From Acidobacteriota bacterium (lineage in GTDB: Bacteria; Acidobacteriota; UBA6911; RPQK01; JAJDTT01): a DNA stretch of 64,000 nt. The stretch spans positions 1,280,001 to 1,344,000 of the forward strand of contig OZ253580.1 in NCBI GenBank assembly GCA_965263035.1. The letters run 5' to 3'. Both the position numbers and the translations under genes were made by a program. The notes under the pieces were generated by a model. That model was not told where the DNA came from, did not search any database, and saw only the letters and a program-made list of their open reading frames with translations. Shown here in pieces: positions 24,401 to 41,180 of this stretch. Numbering within the stretch: position 1 is the stretch's first letter; each line of letters opens with the position of its first letter.

Positions 24401-24785
24401 ACGGCCGTCTGGAAACCACGTGCCCATCGGCTGCCGCGTTTCGACCCACCCCTGACATCCCCAAAAGTAACCGGGAAAAGCCGGAACCGCCAGCGATCCG
24501 GAACGCAGCGGAGCAGGATACGAATCCCAGCCGACTCCGCCGGTGACGCACCGCAGCAGAACCGGCAAGCCACCGTTCCCGGAGGGGCCCTCATGGCGGC
24601 CTGACCCTGAACCGAGCCGGCATCCATGCCGCACGCCCACGGGGACAGGCGGCATTTCATGACCCGCCCGCCAGGATCCTGGCCCCGGCGTGGCCCCAGG
24701 GCCGCTACCGGTCTTCGCCACCCAGGCTTGACTCCCCGCAGGGTTTCGATAAAGATTTGTCTTCAAACGCGAGCGGTCCTCTTAA

Positions 24786-24943
24786 CAGTCCGTGGTGAAA
24801 GTCTCGCGAGCACCGAGACCGTTCCTGCGCCCGCCGGACAAGGCGCGATGAGGGAGCATACCGGGAGTATGTGACCGAGTCGCAACGCAGTCCGCCGGGA
24901 TGCAGGGACGGTCGAATGCCGTGACGACTTTTGCCACGGGCTG
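24786..24943 (+). mobile_element. MITE family B, copy 1 (158 bp)
   Basis: TIR CAGTCCGTGGTGAAAGTC ... GACTTTTGCCACGGGCTG, flanked by a TTAA/TTAA duplication. Confidence 0.88.
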
Positions 24944-28013: not shown

Positions 28014-29508
28014 CATTTTCAGGGTCCCTGGTAACCGCACCAGTGGAGGGCTGTATTCCGCGGCTCTACGCCGGGCACGAACGTTTCCTCTTCTCCTGCT
28101 CTCGGCTTTCCTGGCCGGATTCTCCTTCGGATGCACCCGGCAGCTCGAGCGGCCGAACATCGTTTTGATCCTGGCCGATGACCTGGGCTGGAACCAGTTG
28201 GGCTGCTACGGAAGCAGTTTCTACGAGACTCCCAACCTCGACGGCATGGCTCGAGAGGGGATGCGTCTCACCGACGCCTACGCGGCCAGCCCCGTCTGCT
28301 CCCCGACTCGAGCCAGCATCATGACGGGCAAGTACCCGGCGCGACTCCACGTCACCAAGTTCATCTCGCCGCAGGACTACGTCCCCAACCCGAACGCCAA
28401 GCTGTTGGATCCCGACTGGACACCCTATCTGCGCTTGGAGGAGGAGACGATCGCCGAAGCCTTGAAGAAGCTGGGGTACGTGACGGCCGGCTTCGGAAAA
28501 TGGCACCTCAGCCGCGTCAAGACGCCTCCCGAGAGCCTGCCCTTCAATCCGGACAAGCAAGGTTTCGACCAGCACTTCGTAACCTACAAGCCGGTCCCAT
28601 CCATGGCCAGGAAGTGGCAGACGCCGGAGGACGATGCCCACAACGTGGGAATCATCACCGAGAAGTCCCTGGAGTTCATGGAGAAGAACCGTGAGAGGCC
28701 CTTCTTCCTCTTCGTTTCGCACAACAGCATTCACACCCCCCTGGTGGAGAAGAAGGCTCTGATCTCCAAGTACCGGAGGAAGCCGGACGTCGACTCTCCC
28801 ACCAACCACCCGGTTATCGGAGCCATGATCGAGACCCTGGATCGCAGTGTCGGCCGGCTGCTGGCCAAAATCGACGAGATGAAGCTGACCGAGAGGACCC
28901 TCGTGCTTTTCTATTCCGACAACGGAGGATTGGATTGGACCGCGACCGAGGGGCAGATCGCCGCCAACGATCCGTTGCGGGCCGGAAAGGCCGACCTCTA
29001 CGAAGGGGGAATCCGGGTGCCCTTGATCGTCCGCTGGCCGGGCCGAATCCCCCCCGGCCGCGTCTCCGGGGAACCTGTCAACAGCGTGGATCTCTTTCCC
29101 ACGCTGCTGGAGGCAGCCGGAGGCACCGAGACGGGCAAGGACACCGACGGCATGAGCCTGCTGCCGCTTCTCACGGGGCCCGTGGTCCCCGGCCGGGACG
29201 CGCTCTTCTGGCACTACCCCCACTACCACAAGTTCGGAGCCTTCCCTTCGAGCGCCATCCGGAAGGGTGAGTACAAACTGATCGAGTGGCACGAGGCCGG
29301 GATCTACGGATCGGACAATCGGTACGAACTCTACGACTTGGTGGACGATCTGGGGGAGTCTCGAAATCTGGCCTCCGTCCTGCCGGAGAAGACCCGGGAA
29401 CTGGCAGCCGACCTGGAGAACTGGCGGCGCTCGGTGGGAGCCCAGATGCCGAAGCGCAACCCCGACTATCGGCCGGAAGGCCAGCCGCGGGCGCGTGACC
29501 GGGAGTAG
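27967..29508 (+). CDS. Sulfatase (S1, Cys-type)
   Basis: RPNIVLILADDLG, VCSPTRASIMTG, GKWHL, SDNGG, YEGGIRVP; true start uncertain and probably downstream of 28013. Confidence 0.9.
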   Translation: MVGPTPTWISSAGSRSIFRVPGNRTSGGLYSAALRRARTFPLLLLSAFLAGFSFGCTRQLERPNIVLILADDLGWNQLGCYGSSFYETPNLDGMAREGMRLTDAYAASPVCSPTRASIMTGKYPARLHVTKFISPQDYVPNPNAKLLDPDWTPYLRLEEETIAEALKKLGYVTAGFGKWHLSRVKTPPESLPFNPDKQGFDQHFVTYKPVPSMARKWQTPEDDAHNVGIITEKSLEFMEKNRERPFFLFVSHNSIHTPLVEKKALISKYRRKPDVDSPTNHPVIGAMIETLDRSVGRLLAKIDEMKLTERTLVLFYSDNGGLDWTATEGQIAANDPLRAGKADLYEGGIRVPLIVRWPGRIPPGRVSGEPVNSVDLFPTLLEAAGGTETGKDTDGMSLLPLLTGPVVPGRDALFWHYPHYHKFGAFPSSAIRKGEYKLIEWHEAGIYGSDNRYELYDLVDDLGESRNLASVLPEKTRELAADLENWRRSVGAQMPKRNPDYRPEGQPRARDRE

Positions 29509-30187
29509 ATCGATGCCGGGAACCGGAAGAGACTCGGGGCGGCTCCGATTTCAGCCATGGGCGGGACCGCGAGGAAAGGTGGCCATCCATCTCGCCCTGG
29601 TTCTCGGCGTGGCCTTTTCCGCCGGCTGGCCGGCAGAAGGCCTCGCCGCCGCCATCCCCATCGGCCGGGAAAAGCAGCTACTCTGGGACGACTATCTGAT
29701 CGAAACGCTCCATAACACGGGGTTCGTGCTCAACCAGGCCGAAAAGGCCCCCAACAACCCGGTGATTCGGCAGGACCGGCCCTGGGAAGGGAATCTGATC
29801 CGGGTCGCCACCGTGTTCTACGACGAAGACCAGGGCCGGTTTCGGCTCTGGTATACGTCAGAGAACGTGAAACCTTCTCCCGGCGACCGCTGGGAGAGGT
29901 CCGGGCAGATCGTCTGTTACGCCACCTCCAGGGACGGATACCGGTGGACAAAACCCAACGTCGGCCGGGTGGACTTCAACGGATCGACCCGGAACAACAT
30001 CCTGGACGGCCGGAGCTGGCCGGGATTCAAGGGTGGGATCATCCGCGATGCCCACGATCCCGATCCTTCCCGCCGGTACAAGGGGTTGGTCATGAGCGTG
30101 GCGGGACCGGAGCCCAACTCGACCTCCAGTCCGGGAATGCGCTTCGACCTCTACTACTCGTCCGATGGCTTCGAGTGGGAGCCCTAT

Positions 30188-30345
30188 CAGCCCGTGGCAA
30201 AAGTCGTCGCGGCATTCGACCGTCCCTGCATCCCGGCGGACTGCGTTGCGATTCGGTCACATACTCCCGGTATGCTCCCTCATCGCGCCTTGTCCGGCGG
30301 GCGCAGGAACGGTCTCGGTGCTCGCGAGACTTTCACCACGGACTG
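30188..30345 (-). mobile_element. MITE family B, copy 2, in-frame inside a CDS
   Basis: Reverse complement of 24786-24943; CTAT/CTAT duplication; 158+4 = 162 bp = 54 codons with no stop. Confidence 0.9.
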
Positions 30346-30798
30346 CTATGCCGGCAACCCCGTCATCGACTGGGGAGAGAGACGGGGCCGCTGGGGCCCG
30401 ACGGCATTGATGGGCTGGGATCCGATACGCGGAGTGTACACGGCCCATATGGAGGTCTGCCGTCATCGGAGATGTCCCCGGAACCGGCGTCTGATCGGAC
30501 GGGCCGAAAGCCCGGACCTGATCCGCTGGACCGAATCCGTTCCCATCCTGGTTCCCGATTCCGGCGATCCCCCCGACACCGAGTTCTACAGCTTCTGGGC
30601 GATTCCCTACCACGGCAGGATCGCGGGAATGCTCTGGACCTTCCGGACCACGAACACGGTCATGTACCCTCAGTTCACCTTCAGCCGCAACGGAATCCAC
30701 TACGACCGGCGGTTTCGCGAGCCCCTGATTCCCCTGGGCGCGAACGGCGCCTTCGACAGCGTGCTGCAGCCCGTCGTCCACGGCGAAAGGATATTCAT

Positions 30799-32042
30799 GG
30801 GGATTATATGCCTAAGTGCCGAGAATTCAGGCTGATGGTTTACAATTCCTACCATGAAAGGCCACGCAACTATCCAGTGCAGAGCCAAGCTGTCCAAGGG
30901 TGGAATCCGGCGGTTGGACGGGGTGAGGTCCATCCTGAATCGGCTGTACAACGCTGCACTGGAGGAACACAGGACGGCCTGGGAATCCGAGCAACGCGGC
31001 GTGACCCTGTACGATCAGATGAAGGGGTTGACCTCCAAAAGGAAGGAGGATCCGGAGGGGCTCGGGTCAGTGGCGGTCAAGGCGGAGCGGGGGATGCTGG
31101 TTCGGTTGGACCGGGCCTTCAAGGCGTTCTTCCGTCGCTGCAAGGCGGGGGAGAAGCCGGGGTATCCTCGATTCCGGCCCATTGCGAGGATGGAGACCAT
31201 CGACGTCGTCGACCCCAAAGCGACCATGGTGAAGAAGCGCGCTCGGGGCTACGCCATCCGGCCCAAGGGCTTTCCGACGATCCGGATATTTCCCTCCCGG
31301 CCGTTGCCGGACGGATGCCCGTTGAAAGCGTTGCGGATTGTCCGCAAGCCGAACCGGGTGTATGTGGACCTGACCTACGAGGTGGAGAAGCCGCCGCTAC
31401 CGAAATGCGAGTCTTCGGTGGGGATCGACCTGGGAGTCCGCAAGCGAGCGGTGCTGTCCACGGGTGAGAGGATCGAACGGAATCGACGGGACTGGGGGGA
31501 GATCCGAAAGCAGCAGAGAAAGGTCTCCAGGTGCAAGAAGATTTCCAAGACCAGACGGAAACGGATCGTACAGCTATCTCGGCTCCGTCACCGGGAATCG
31601 GTCCGAAACCGTAATGCCTGCCATCGTCTCTCCACCAGGATCATTCGTGAGCACGGTCTGATCGCTGTGGAGAAACTGAACATCCAAGGGATGGTGACGA
31701 AGGGCTCGAAGAAGAAGGGGCTGAATCGAGAAATAATGACGCAATCATGGAGGCTTCTGCGGAATCAACTCCAGTACAAGGCAGAATGGGCCGGTCGGAA
31801 GTTCGTAGAAGTGAATCCCGCATATACATCGCAGGACTGCCACCGGTGCGGCGCCCGCCACGATCCAGGACGGAGCGAAACCTTCCGGTGCAGGGCCTGC
31901 GGACTTGGAATGGACAGGGACCACAATGCCGCCCTGAACATTCTCAGGGCTGGGGTTCTTGCCCTGGGCACCGGAACGTATCTCGTTGGGGAAAGCGTGG
32001 TGCCAGAACTGTATGCCAATGGCACTTAGGTATATAAGCCCC
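30799..32042 (+). mobile_element. Non-autonomous TIR element (IS1595/ISNwi1-like ends) carrying tnpB
   Basis: Left end GGGGATTATATGCCTAAGTGCC, right end GGCACTTAGGTATATAAGCCCC (20/22 inverted match); ATATTCAT duplicated at 30791-30798 and 32043-32050; no transposase. Confidence 0.88.
30854..32029 (+). CDS. tnpB: RNA-guided endonuclease TnpB
   Basis: RLYNAAL, GYPRFR, RuvC-I GIDLG, RuvC-II AVEKL, LQYKAEWAGR, zinc finger TSQDCHRCG...FRCRACG, RuvC-III DRDHNAALNI. Confidence 0.93.
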   Translation: MKGHATIQCRAKLSKGGIRRLDGVRSILNRLYNAALEEHRTAWESEQRGVTLYDQMKGLTSKRKEDPEGLGSVAVKAERGMLVRLDRAFKAFFRRCKAGEKPGYPRFRPIARMETIDVVDPKATMVKKRARGYAIRPKGFPTIRIFPSRPLPDGCPLKALRIVRKPNRVYVDLTYEVEKPPLPKCESSVGIDLGVRKRAVLSTGERIERNRRDWGEIRKQQRKVSRCKKISKTRRKRIVQLSRLRHRESVRNRNACHRLSTRIIREHGLIAVEKLNIQGMVTKGSKKKGLNREIMTQSWRLLRNQLQYKAEWAGRKFVEVNPAYTSQDCHRCGARHDPGRSETFRCRACGLGMDRDHNAALNILRAGVLALGTGTYLVGESVVPELYANGT

Positions 32043-32062
32043 ATATTCATCTACTACCGGGG
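31945..32062 (+). ncRNA. Predicted 3' part of the TnpB omegaRNA scaffold plus flank-derived guide
   Basis: Stems CAGGGC/GCCCTG, GGCACC/GGTGCC, an AGAA linker, stem TGTATGCC/GGTATATA; loop TGGGG complementary to terminal CCCC(A). The 5' end is unknown. Confidence 0.55.
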
Positions 32063-32489
32063 GCGGAACTGGCGGGCTCCGGGGCAACTGGACCGGCTGG
32101 GCGAAGCGAGGGCTCAGGGAGCCGTCGGCCTGGCGGTGCTGCCGCTGGACGGCTTCATCTCCCTGGACGGAGCCGCCACGCCCGGCGATTACAGCGAAGT
32201 GGTCACGCGCTCCTTCGTCTTCTCCGGAAACATCCTCCTCCTCAACGCGCAGGCCGGGATACCGTCCCAAGGCAACGTGGCCGAGGTCCGTGTGGAGATC
32301 CTCCGGCCCGACTCCTTCCCCGTCCCGGGCTACAGGTTCGAGGAGACCGACCTGGTGGACGCCGCGGGTCCGGCGAGCGCCGCGAGCTGGCGGGGTGGAG
32401 ACGGGGACGTGGGCCGGCTGGCCGGCCAACCCGTCAAGCTCAAGTTCTACTTCCGGCACACCAAACTGTACTCCTTTCAATTCCGGTAA

Positions 32490-32647
32490 CAGTCCGTGGT
32501 GAAAGTCCCGCGAGCACCGAGACCGTTCCTGCGCCCGCCGGACAAGGCGCGATTCGGGAGCATACCGGGAGTATGTGACCGAATCGCAACGCAGTCCGCC
32601 GGGATGCAGGGACGGTCGAATGCCGTGACGACTTTTGCCACGGGCTG
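32490..32647 (+). mobile_element. MITE family B, copy 3 (158 bp)
   Basis: Near-identical to 24786-24943; GTAA/GTAA duplication that includes the upstream TAA stop codon. Confidence 0.88.
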
Positions 32648-32657
32648 GTAAGGACCG

Positions 32658-34241
32658 ATGAAGGCTCCCCTTGCGGCAATCCTATCCTTGTCTCTCGGCG
32701 GTCAGTGTCTCGCCGAGCTCATCGAGATCGGCACCCGGAAGCAGCTTTTCTTCGACGACAACCTAATCGAAAGCAGGACCGGGGCCCGGCAGGTGCTGAA
32801 TCCGGCCGTCAAGCTGGCCGGCAATCCCGTGGTCCGGCAGGACAGGCCCTGGGAAGGCAACGACATCAAGTACGGCAGCCTCGTCTACGATCCCGAACGA
32901 AGGCTATTCAGGATGTGGTACTGGAGCCAGACGGTCGAAAAGAGGGACAAGGAGGATCACTACGACGCCAGGAAAGCCTGCTACGCCGTCTCCCGCGATG
33001 GCTACCACTGGGAGAAGCCGGCGCTGGGCCTGGTGGAGTTCGAGGGATCGACGGCAAACAACATCCTGGGCGAAGAGAGCTACCCCCAGGAGAAGCACGG
33101 CACGACGACCGAACCCGGCAGGTTCAAGGGCGGCATCTTCCTCGACCCGGTCGAAAAGGATCCCCGGAAGAGGTACAAGGCGTTCTCCCGCTCCTGGGCC
33201 GAGGGGGCGGTACCGGGGACCGATCTTCCCAAGGGCTTCCGGGTCTGGAATCTCTTCACCTCCCCCGACGCATTCCGCTGGACGCCCTACCCCGGGAATC
33301 CCGTCATCGAGCCGAAGGGTGTCCCGAAACGACATCCGGAGGGGGAACCCTGGGCTAGACGGAAGGGCTATCAAGGATACCTCTGGGGACCCACGTCGAT
33401 GATGGGGTGGGATCCGATTCGTCAAGTCTATGCCGCGTACATGGAGAACTGCCAACACAAGCGATGCCCCCTCCGGAAGCGGGTGATCGGCCGGGCCGAA
33501 AGTCCCGATCTCGTCAACTGGAGCGAACCCTCGACCCTTCTCGTTCCCGACGGCCAGGACCCGCCGGACCTCCAGTTCTACGCCCTGCATGTCTCCGCCT
33601 ACGAGGGGTATTACGTGGGCATGTTGTGGTGTTACCGGGCGTCGAGCCCGGCCACCCGATGGATCCAATTCGTCTTCAGTCGAGACGGGATCCGGTGGGA
33701 CCGCCGCTATCGCCGCCCCTTCATCCCGCTGGGCCCGCCCCCGGAATTCGATTCCGCCGTGATCGCCGCTCTGGCTCCCGTCGTCCACGACAACGAGATC
33801 TTCTGCCTCTACTACGGAAAGAACTTTCGTGACCGGCGGTTGGATCAGATCGGAGGTCCCGCCGTGGGAGCCATGGGCCTGGCGGTGCTGCCCCTGGACG
33901 GTTGGGTCTCGCTCGAGAACGACGATCAGACCCGCAACCGCTACGCGGAGGTGGTCACCCTTCCCTTCACGTTTTCGGGAAGCCGGCTCCAGGTCAACGT
34001 CGGCCCCCAGGTTGATGGAGAGAGCGCCCGCTTCAGCTTGAATGTGGAAATCCTGGCACCGGACCACTTCCGGGTGAAGGGCTACAGCTTCGAGGAGTCC
34101 GATTCCATCACTCGGGGAGGGGTGGCCCGGGTCGCAAGCTGGAATGGAGAGGACGATCTCAGCTCGTTGGCCGGGAAGCCGATCAAGCTGAAGTTCTACC
34201 TGAAGAACGCCCGGCTCTTCTCCTACCAGTTCGTCCCCTGA
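32658..34241 (+). CDS. Secreted beta-propeller GH-like protein (paralog 4)
   Basis: Signal peptide; IGTRKQLFFDD, CYAVSRDGYHWEKP, MENCQHKRC, DGWVSL, RLFSYQF. Confidence 0.78.
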   Translation: MKAPLAAILSLSLGGQCLAELIEIGTRKQLFFDDNLIESRTGARQVLNPAVKLAGNPVVRQDRPWEGNDIKYGSLVYDPERRLFRMWYWSQTVEKRDKEDHYDARKACYAVSRDGYHWEKPALGLVEFEGSTANNILGEESYPQEKHGTTTEPGRFKGGIFLDPVEKDPRKRYKAFSRSWAEGAVPGTDLPKGFRVWNLFTSPDAFRWTPYPGNPVIEPKGVPKRHPEGEPWARRKGYQGYLWGPTSMMGWDPIRQVYAAYMENCQHKRCPLRKRVIGRAESPDLVNWSEPSTLLVPDGQDPPDLQFYALHVSAYEGYYVGMLWCYRASSPATRWIQFVFSRDGIRWDRRYRRPFIPLGPPPEFDSAVIAALAPVVHDNEIFCLYYGKNFRDRRLDQIGGPAVGAMGLAVLPLDGWVSLENDDQTRNRYAEVVTLPFTFSGSRLQVNVGPQVDGESARFSLNVEILAPDHFRVKGYSFEESDSITRGGVARVASWNGEDDLSSLAGKPIKLKFYLKNARLFSYQFVP

Positions 34242-41021: not shown

Positions 41022-41180
41022 TAGTCCGTGGCGAAAGTCGTCACGCCATTCCACTGGGTCTGCATTCCGACAGACCGGGTTGCTTCTCGATCACATAGGG
41101 TCGAATAGGTTCCCTCGTCGCGCCTTGTCCGGCGGACGCAGCCCCCGTCTCGGCGCTACGCAGGATTTCTACCACGGGAG
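41022..41180 (-). mobile_element. Diverged MITE family B relative
   Basis: AGTCCGTGGCGAAAGTCGTCACG...CGCGCCTTGTCCGGCGG...ACCACGGG; same length and shared blocks with copy 2, but many substitutions. Confidence 0.65.

Follow-up and report, generated by a model that had tools for sequence, protein, structure and literature searches.

A non-autonomous IS1595-type element in an Acidobacteriota genome carries tnpB and a predicted omegaRNA scaffold that includes its right terminal inverted repeat

The window, i.e. the whole stretch of 64,000 nucleotides of Acidobacteriota DNA that was analysed, belongs to a host genome of one 6.2-Mb contig, and some of the RNA and DNA runs containing the stretch are labelled sponge metagenome. 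At 30799–32042 the window contains a 1,244-bp element bounded by 22-nt terminal inverted repeats (TIRs) and an 8-bp target duplication. Its sole long sense open reading frame (ORF) is tnpB, encoding a predicted RNA-guided nuclease, and the element has no transposase gene. The final 98 nt (31945–32042) comprise the hairpin P1, the three-tier P2, a 5-nt linker, the hairpin P3 and a 6-nt tail, and are read here as the scaffold of the omegaRNA, the RNA with which TnpB would act. As a whole, the locus is best explained, with good confidence, as a non-autonomous element of IS1595 type, the omegaRNA scaffold of which contains the right TIR and a pseudoknot between the P1 loop and the element terminus. 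The features, with coordinates of the window, are the following.

30789–30791, plus strand: candidate target-adjacent motif (TAM), i.e. the two bases 5′ of the left duplication and its first base, proposed on the basis of insertion-site statistics
30791–30798, no strand: left target-site duplication, 8 bp, 100% identical to 32043–32050 in a repeat search
30799–30820, plus strand: left TIR, 22 nt, matching the TIR of an IS1595-family insertion sequence (IS) at 19 of 22 positions
30854–32029, plus strand: tnpB, 391 amino acids, intact, identified by Pfam, NCBIfam, alignment and match to ISDra2
31945–31966, plus strand: P1 hairpin, 6-bp stem (arms 31945–31950 and 31961–31966) and 10-nt loop (31951–31960)
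31952–31957, plus strand: 5′ strand of the putative pseudoknot, within the P1 loop
31967–32004, plus strand: P2, with an outer 6-bp helix (arms 31967–31972 and 31999–32004), a 3-bp helix and an inner 4-bp hairpin
32005–32009, plus strand: single-stranded linker, 5 nt, nearly invariant in the alignments A3 and A4 described below
32010–32036, plus strand: P3 hairpin, arms 32010–32017 and 32029–32036, 8 bp including two G·U pairs
32021–32042, plus strand: right TIR, 22 nt, containing the tnpB stop codon (32027–32029)
32037–32042, plus strand: 3′ strand of the putative pseudoknot, the last six bases of the element, covarying with the P1 loop over TIR types
32043–32050, no strand: right target-site duplication, 8 bp, of the same direct-repeat family as 30791–30798
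32043–32062, plus strand: predicted guide, the flank beside the scaffold end, with a start at 32043 or 32044 and an inferred length

The repeat search called inverted arms of 24 nt (30797–30820 and 32021–32044, 92% complementary), in which 2 nt of the duplication are included, and the TIRs proper (30799–30820 and 32021–32042) are identical at 20 of 22 positions. The element interrupts a gene, the ORF pieces of which (29495–30835 and 31959–32489) rejoin in frame over a single copy of the duplication. An intact paralog of the interrupted gene is located downstream at 32658–34241. A second copy of the element, 635 kb away and 99.84% identical over 1,247 nt, has its own, different 8-bp duplication, and its homology ends at the identical two nucleotides, which fixes the element boundary independently. 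An empty-site search with the right flank in four related genomes turned up a 154-nt repeat, and no orthologous site was found. Identity as an IS200/IS605 element (an IS1341-type solo tnpB) was ruled out by the 22-nt TIRs and the 8-bp duplications. The interrupted gene and its intact paralog are both without a Pfam match.

The tnpB product was recognised by Pfam OrfB_IS605 (PF01385; 3.2e-18, 66.5 bits with a cut-off of 30.5) and Cas12f1-like_TNB (PF07282; 5.9e-26, 90.8 bits with a cut-off of 26.3), and by NCBIfam NF040570, guided_TnpB (215.6 bits with a cut-off of 100). Its closest natural solved protein is ISDra2 TnpB (2.5e-31 over residues 31–376 of the 391, the solved chain being 408 amino acids long). 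Residues D192, E273 and D356, which by alignment to ISDra2-type TnpB and by the usual motifs we take to be the RuvC triad, were invariant in an alignment of eight diverged relatives, as were cysteines 329, 332 and 349, and the fourth zinc-finger cysteine was seen in the window TnpB itself. Judged by these residues, TnpB looks like an intact, potentially active RNA-guided nuclease with a complete triad and a C4 zinc finger. Identity as a TldR-type nuclease-dead TnpB derivative was ruled out by the invariant triad.

Scanning of the host genome with the terminal decamer types of the element returned 22 left-type and 23 right-type ends. The genome carries a 1,762-bp IS in seven full copies, each with its own 8-bp duplication, and one interrupted copy. 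The ORF of this IS (334 amino acids) matched DDE_Tnp_IS1595 at 5e-38 and NCBIfam transpos_IS1595 with 178.7 bits (cut-off 75), and its N-terminal zinc-ribbon domain scored slightly under the cut-off. The IS has TIRs of about 26 nt and AT-rich 8-bp duplications, and its TIR is common to the tnpB element: the left TIR of the latter is identical at 19 of 22 positions in the window, and that of a tnpB element in genome G402 (locus L017) at 21 of 22 (24 of 26). Beyond the TIRs, tnpB element and IS share nothing. In G402 the IS is present in five copies, and a search with the TnpB of a SAR202 relative (L039) as query gave 15 matches at E ≤1e-40. Since the ends are shared and both kinds of element co-occur in the host genome (G000) and in G402, the 1,762-bp IS1595-family IS of the host genome is the most probable source of transposase for the tnpB element, which would be moved in trans. 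The element contains no transposase, which is located on the separate 1,762-bp copies, and it can therefore be only a non-autonomous, IS1595-type relative and not an IS1595 member proper. The ISNwi1 group of the IS1595 family, in the ISfinder classification, has 8-bp duplications, similar ends, and members with passenger genes. The full IS copies include an active-looking one with 26-nt TIRs outside the window (G000:C1:1740263–1742024, locus L014), and the eighth copy (976200–979730) is interrupted by another transposase-bearing insertion.

Further copies of the tnpB element with ca. 71–78% DNA identity, belonging to at least two more subfamilies, were found in the host genome, and many more in three other Acidobacteriota assemblies. 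Relatives at 42–48% protein identity were present in a SAR202 genome and on a few metagenome contigs. The clade is rare: at E ≤1e-60 the protein matched in 2 of 401 genomes of the phylum, i.e. the host genome and one of the same genus, and in the others among the 401 searched the clade was not found at this threshold. Similarity stopped at the same nucleotide in all 35 aligned close copies and was followed by unrelated flanks, and 20 complete relatives had 8-bp duplications at differing sites, which, together with 12 sites of the IS, were available for comparison. The scan of metagenomes retained the best 80 of 406 relatives, and within these, ends of this kind were recognised by automated search and reading by eye only in L077/L078, L080, L084, L091 and the SAR202-type L079/L081/L097; the remaining loci (32–40% identity) resembled ordinary TnpB loci.

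The scaffold hairpins were compared over these relatives in two alignments, i.e. a MAFFT alignment of 18 sequences (A3) and a second one (A4) of 30 matches (28 distinct) fitted to a covariance model that had been derived from these sequences. In A3, 95.9% of 561 cells were paired, in comparison to 86.7±0.7% in 500 shuffles, none of which was as high, and to 32.9–46.3% when partners were slid; 15 pairs had changed on both sides, in comparison to 5.7±1.7 after shuffling. The corresponding values for A4 were 96.8% paired, 85.3% shuffled and 34.0–48.1% slid, with 18 pairs changed on both sides against 8.9. P1 was paired in 98–100% of cells with three to four of its six pairs changed on both sides, and P2 in 99–100% with such changes in four to five of the six outer and in all four inner pairs. 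P3 is the weakest helix (89–91% of cells, two to three of seven pairs). Its 3′ arm (32029–32036) and part of its loop are located within the right TIR; in every subfamily the 3′ arm consists of TIR sequence, with which the 5′ arm changes in step. When 24 representatives were folded as single sequences with the last six bases held open, P1, P2 and P3 were obtained in 23, L028 being misfolded, and P3 ended 6–8 nt before the element end. RNAalifold, unprompted, predicted P1 and P2 from the MAFFT alignment with 11 of 22 pairs compensatory. Covariation across 18–30 relatives thus supports the three helices, those of P3 on the basis of the single-sequence folds and the model-fitted alignment. Searching of the scaffold against Rfam assigned it to no family (three chance-level hits, E 3.1–7.6, far below the gathering scores), and a conservation profile along the element over five subfamilies had no scaffold peak (0.43–0.60, like the gene average), which is uninformative.

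An earlier reading of the window sequence alone (the original prediction) had proposed that the right TIR is built into the omegaRNA scaffold. The stems, the linker, the stop codon inside the TIR and the flank which it had described are all present, and the proposal itself agrees with the position of the P3 3′ arm and with the compensatory changes by which P1, P2 and P3 are kept. The comparison of 3′ regions which it had suggested as a check gave paired cells and both-sided changes well above the shuffled and slid controls, together with joint changes of loop and terminus.

The joint changes concern the pseudoknot, which in the window pairs 31952–31957 with 32037–32042 by four G-C pairs, one G·U and one U-A. 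In all 24 representatives, contiguous pairing extended from loop position 2 to the last 6–8 nt of the element, with a length of 5 bp in two, 6 bp in 16 and 7 bp in six. A GGGG/CCCC pseudoknot had been predicted from the window; the complementarity of loop and terminus was confirmed, and the length of 4 bp was replaced by 5–7 bp. Four fully complementary versions of loop and terminus were found. In addition to that of the window, in which pair 4 is G-C, L032, L077, L091 and L179 have A-U at both pairs 4 and 5, L080 has A-U at pair 4 and C-G at pair 5, and in the SAR202 loci L165 and L169 all pairs differ, and the loop is perfectly complementary over 7 bp to an unrelated TIR terminus. The TnpB of L032 is placed inside the Acidobacteriota clade, but its TIR terminus differs at both ends and its loop is changed at the two matching positions, at the cost of two amino-acid changes in the otherwise conserved C-terminal tail. 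On the TnpB tree, the four versions need at least three switches; the tree has 18 rows, and 8 of 26 were left out (six ORFs shorter than 330 amino acids and two without a loop and tail record). Moreover, position 5 of the right TIR departs from the IS TIR, by which a U-U opposition in the pseudoknot becomes G·U, and the left TIR retains the IS base.

In the two tool-counted alignments the pseudoknot helix was 93.5–93.9% paired. The pseudoknot is, as far as sequence can show, real, and the tnpB-omegaRNA cassette seems to have passed from one TIR family to another, unrelated one, with six loop bases re-tuned to each terminus. The proposal that the scaffold has co-adapted to the TIR, which had been made against passive capture, was thus borne out by loop and terminus changing together at least three times; the phenomenon itself is already in print.

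Transcription is predicted to continue into the flank. The flank differs in every copy, as expected of a guide, and neither the 16-nt nor the 20-nt guide string had another exact match in the host genome. In three runs of a single study, assembled RNA-library contigs extend across the element end, starting at 31521, 31757 and 31908 and reaching 32060 (X1), 32061 (X2) and 32063 (X3); X2 and X3 stop there at the contig end. The depths of the end-crossing contigs were 25.5–28.6, in comparison to 2.7–5.1 further downstream and 3–9.6 over most of the tnpB body. An abundant RNA with its end 18–21 nt beyond the element would agree with these data, which are taken as a weak hint. The guide could start at 32043, at 32044, if the invariant first duplicated base closes the scaffold, or at 32051, with the whole duplication in the scaffold as in Fanzors. 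Of the predicted guide, the adjacent flank at 32043–32062, next to the scaffold end, was retained, with 32043 as one of the possible starts. Near-matches to 16 nt of the guide, with 2 mismatches, occur at other places in the genome and suggest that the interrupted gene and its paralog belong to a larger family, in which the insertion point falls on a conserved motif. In three runs, very short RNA-library contigs (31–37 nt) with depths of 50–170 pile up at 31763–31794, which is also the most conserved stretch among the subfamilies; the pile-up may consist of k-mers common to paralogs.

The insertion sites of the 20 complete elements, with perfect or near-perfect duplications and oriented by tnpB, had a common motif at their left side. 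The base just 5′ of the duplication (−1) was G in 19 of 20 sites and the base at −2 in 13 of 20. The first duplicated base was A in all 20 sites, and in 34 of 35 right flanks, not all of which are independent sites. The duplication itself was AT-rich, with A or T at position 2 in 20 of 20 and T at position 7 in 14 of 20, and variable at positions 4, 5 and 8. The mirror positions on the right side matched the motif in only 5 of 20; the motif was confined to the left in 14 sites and to the right in none (binomial p = 1.2e-4). In 12 partner-IS copies, for which the transposase gene gave the orientation, the motif was found in 3 of 12 on either side, i.e. at the left of 19 of 20 tnpB elements versus 3 of 12 IS copies (Fisher p = 6.9e-5), the numbers of sites being small and the IS copies originating from two genomes only. 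The G is located outside the RNA, and therefore a requirement of the RNA cannot explain it, whereas a TAM recognised in the empty-site DNA can. The left-only G/A motif is accordingly proposed as a candidate TAM.

The copied A on the right side would be placed between pseudoknot and guide, where ISDra2 has the unpaired base −1. It recalls the right-flanking nucleotide absorbed into the scaffold in IS607 and the duplication absorbed in Fanzors, as these are described in PMC10711439 and PMC13565253. Somewhat speculatively, and as a possibility we would place below even chances, a G-rich TAM may straddle the duplication edge, with the same A as the last unpaired scaffold base, and be combined either with tnpB-dependent retention or with an insertion site and orientation biased by the TAM; module and transposon would then be more tightly coupled. 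If this coupling were true, either retention would be strong enough that only insertions with the left half-site survive, or binding of the TAM by TnpB would bias insertion.

The mechanism which may be proposed begins with an omegaRNA encoded on the plus strand, over the tnpB 3′ end and the whole right TIR. The 6-nt tail (32037–32042) would pair back to the P1 loop (31952–31957) as the pseudoknot, and the 22 nucleotides of DNA recognised by the transposase would double in RNA as the P3 3′ arm and the pseudoknot 3′ strand, and in the gene as C-terminal codons and stop codon. Transcription continuing into the flank would provide a guide of about 16–20 nt from 32043 or 32044. The ribonucleoprotein would cut the uninterrupted target site, where the guide match is preceded by the left-flank G (often GG) and A. 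The occupied locus would be spared, because there the C-run of the element replaces the motif before the guide match. The element would then be regained by repair with an occupied copy as template, which has been shown for IS605-type TnpB. In subfamily B (L003, L004, L006 and L034), the tnpB frame runs nearly throughout the right TIR, with 5 nt left between its stop codon and the element end; there the terminus is at once transposase site, RNA strand, codons and stop codon.

A rather improbable alternative shifts the scaffold boundary, so that the TIR, the pseudoknot and also the whole 8-bp duplication are in the scaffold, the guide starts at 32051 and the left duplication is read as the TAM. 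This is the arrangement predicted for Fanzor1 and Fanzor2*, with TIR and duplication in the scaffold and reRNAs extending about 15 nt past the duplication (PMC10711439), and a review likewise places the 5′ duplication in the TAM and the 3′ duplication in the scaffold (PMC13565253). The conserved positions 1, 2 and 7 of the AT-rich duplication would agree with it, but an 8-nt sequence variable at positions 4, 5 and 8 gives no fixed scaffold or TAM sequence, and the G at −1, the second strongest signal of the site, is outside the duplication. RNA contigs stopping 18–21 nt past the element would leave a guide of only 10–13 nt, the contigs being weak evidence.

Quite unlikely, too, is a role other than homing, i.e. 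RNA-guided repression as by TldR, or binding of the TAM as an aid to the DDE transposase in choosing insertion site and orientation. Later selection alone hardly accounts for the left-only motif, which is far weaker in the partner IS, and cut-and-paste excision already leaves a break, to which a restorative nuclease should add little according to PMC13565253. Against such a role stand the RuvC triad and zinc-finger cysteines, which are intact and invariant in eight diverged relatives, unlike in nuclease-dead derivatives, and the guide, which as the flank of each copy itself is unable to direct insertion into new sites.

Returning to the TIR-containing scaffold with its pseudoknot as a part of a homing element, a number of observations weigh against this interpretation. 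The window fold of 31900–32062 had z = -1.65, and 14 of 200 shuffles folded equally well or better; a single sequence thus folds no better than chance and the case depends on the relatives. The scaffold overlaps coding sequence, which is itself a constraint, and A4 leans towards the structure of the model to which it was fitted. RNAalifold did not recover P3 from the MAFFT alignment, because indels in the P3 loop are misaligned. For the pseudoknot, the match of four G to four C has little meaning alone at 62% G+C, and its bases are invariant in most Acidobacteriota copies, which is uninformative either way. Only two of its six pairs had changed on both sides in the two tool-counted alignments. 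These counts understate the case, since the SAR202 rows are absent from both (not entered in A3 and without a match to the model of A4) and L080 is misregistered in either alignment. L080, L165 and L169, which make the strongest cases, were registered by hand or script, as MAFFT and the model misplace them. A control with non-cognate loops and tails was not discriminating, 77 of 192 mismatched combinations still running to 6–7 pairs, because most types share the G-run and the C-run. Pairing is imperfect in one register of subfamily D (U-U) and only 5 bp long in L084 and L028, and decayed copies have terminal changes without compensation. As for the RNA, the data are assembled contigs, unable to show ends, strand or level; X1 continues with 30 letters unlike the window, and in a second study (X5) a contig runs at least 67 nt into a different flank, unlike a sharp 3′ end. 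As for mobilisation, no close IS copy was found in G148, a genome with subfamily-D elements.

Very improbable, in spite of the low z-value, of the invariance of the pseudoknot bases in most close relatives, and of the inverted ends, because of which any loop able to pair with the right terminus is bound to be similar to the left one, is a coincidental overlap at the level of DNA, in which the hairpins are by-products of a G+C-rich tail and the TIR, the loop is an internal transposase-binding copy of the end, and there is no RNA pseudoknot: 15–18 helix pairs keep pairing through both-sided changes, the loop follows the right terminus where the ends differ (the left end has A at position 5, and the RNA pair formed there with the right end is G·U), and we know of no role in the IS1595 family for a single internal 6-nt transposase site. 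Moreover, the pseudoknot strand is at loop position 2 of the conserved P1 apical loop in 24 of 24, the same place as in ISDra2 and ISXfa1 as described in PMC10097598 and PMC10711439.

Several known systems resemble the element in part. In ISDra2, the omegaRNA overlaps the tnpB 3′ end and stops at the right end of the element, with the flank as the guide, and bases −6 to −2 pair as a pseudoknot with a loop ca. 100 nt upstream (PMC10097598). The predicted omegaRNA of the element here is alike in its placement over the tnpB 3′ end, in the flank as guide and in the pseudoknot beside the guide. However, ISDra2 (IS200/IS605 family, Deinococcus radiodurans) has neither TIRs nor a duplication, it moves single-stranded by the Y1 transposase TnpA, and its TAM is the TnpA target site, whereas here a DDE-type TIR is at the right end, the 8-bp duplication starts the flank, and tnpA is absent. 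A recent review likewise defines IS200/IS605 elements by the lack of TIRs and duplication, by asymmetric ends with subterminal DNA hairpins, and by insertion 3′ of a short fixed target equal to the TAM (PMC13565253).

RNA-guided nucleases are described as rare in prokaryotic cut-and-paste (DDE) transposons and common in eukaryotic ones, and the reasons proposed for the rarity are the break left by excision and the constraint which pseudoknot and TAM set on usable ends (PMC13565253, PMC10711439). Altae-Tran et al. (2023) distinguished six DDE-associated prokaryotic TnpB branches (DDE-1 to DDE-6), all with inverted terminal repeats, in which the tnpB 3′ end is at most 250 bp from the transposon end and solo tnpB copies with matching ends are apparently mobilised in trans (PMC10691335). 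In the position of tnpB near an inverted-repeat end and in solo copies moved in trans, these branches are like the element here. The partner of branch DDE-6 is IS630 (PMC10691335), and a 2026 review gives ISL2, IS630 and IS1031 as DDE partners (PMC13565253). IS1595 has no occurrence in the main text of PMC10691335, the supplementary locus lists of which (Additional Files 10 and 11) could include the clade, and the passages on DDE branches in that paper contain no description of a TIR-terminus pseudoknot or a flank motif. A literature search found no publication linking TnpB with IS1595 elements, co-mentioning papers being judged by title and the start of the abstract.

According to Yoon et al. 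(2023), the pseudoknot is conserved in TnpB and Fanzor2 whatever the transposon, with proof by compensatory mutation in ISXfa1 (IS607), and the reRNA scaffold absorbs sequence dictated by the transposase, which in Fanzors is the TIR with the duplication and in IS607 the nucleotide flanking the right end; non-autonomous copies with the nuclease only exist as well (PMC10711439). The element here is like Fanzor2*, Fanzor1 and ISXfa1 in that the scaffold takes in transposase-dictated sequence, in the pseudoknot and in nuclease-only copies. Unlike these eukaryotic, viral or serine-recombinase systems, it resides in an Acidobacteriota host and an IS1595-like transposon, and unlike in Fanzors, the duplication is 8 bp and mostly variable, with at most its first base or bases in scaffold or TAM. 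From the IS1595-family IS it differs in lacking a transposase and in the RNA and reading frame of the passenger nuclease, which would both cross the right TIR. The element is thus a bacterial parallel to the eukaryotic Fanzor elements, and TnpB in DDE elements and TIR-absorbing scaffolds have been published before; new here are the candidate TAM, the covariation by which a TIR terminus is supported as a pseudoknot strand, and the re-tuning of the loop from one TIR family to another.

What is gained is therefore a new, well-documented family together with a testable hypothesis on TAM and retention, and not a new kind of system. The family offers a natural bacterial test case of a transposase-recognised terminus serving as a pseudoknot strand, with the loop re-tuned at each change of the terminus, and the orientation-specific insertion motif is directly testable as a TAM. 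For structure-function work, the compact TnpB of 391 amino acids, the short scaffold of 98 nt, a possibly G-containing TAM and the natural pseudoknot variants may be of use.

Among the relatives, L077 and L091, both on metagenome contigs, have clear TIRs (37 nt and ca. 23 nt) and no matching duplication on both sides, and may be rearranged or nested copies. L165 and L169, in the SAR202 genome G401, are TnpB elements of ca. 1,380 bp; their TIR has no relation to the IS1595 type, and their duplications are 7 and 6 bp long, respectively. When the fragmented G401 assembly was searched with the first 80 nt of the SAR202 element, only the two tnpB elements and no transposase with such ends were found. 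At L082:2175–2268, a TnpB locus of 40% protein identity without a recognisable TIR, the covariance model matched with 40 bits (E ~9e-5) over P1 and P2 alone; the association with TIR elements may have arisen later than the front half of the scaffold.

A 154-nt repeat is present in the window at 32487–32640, 24783–24936, 30195–30348 (minus strand) and 41029–41177, the copy at 30195–30348 within the gene interrupted by the tnpB element. It had 181 BLAST matches in the host genome, 160 of which were at least 140 nt long, and 23–43 matches listed per genome in four related genomes. The repeat folds as a single long hairpin (−91 kcal/mol) and looks like a miniature inverted-repeat transposable element or an element of the repetitive extragenic palindromic type.

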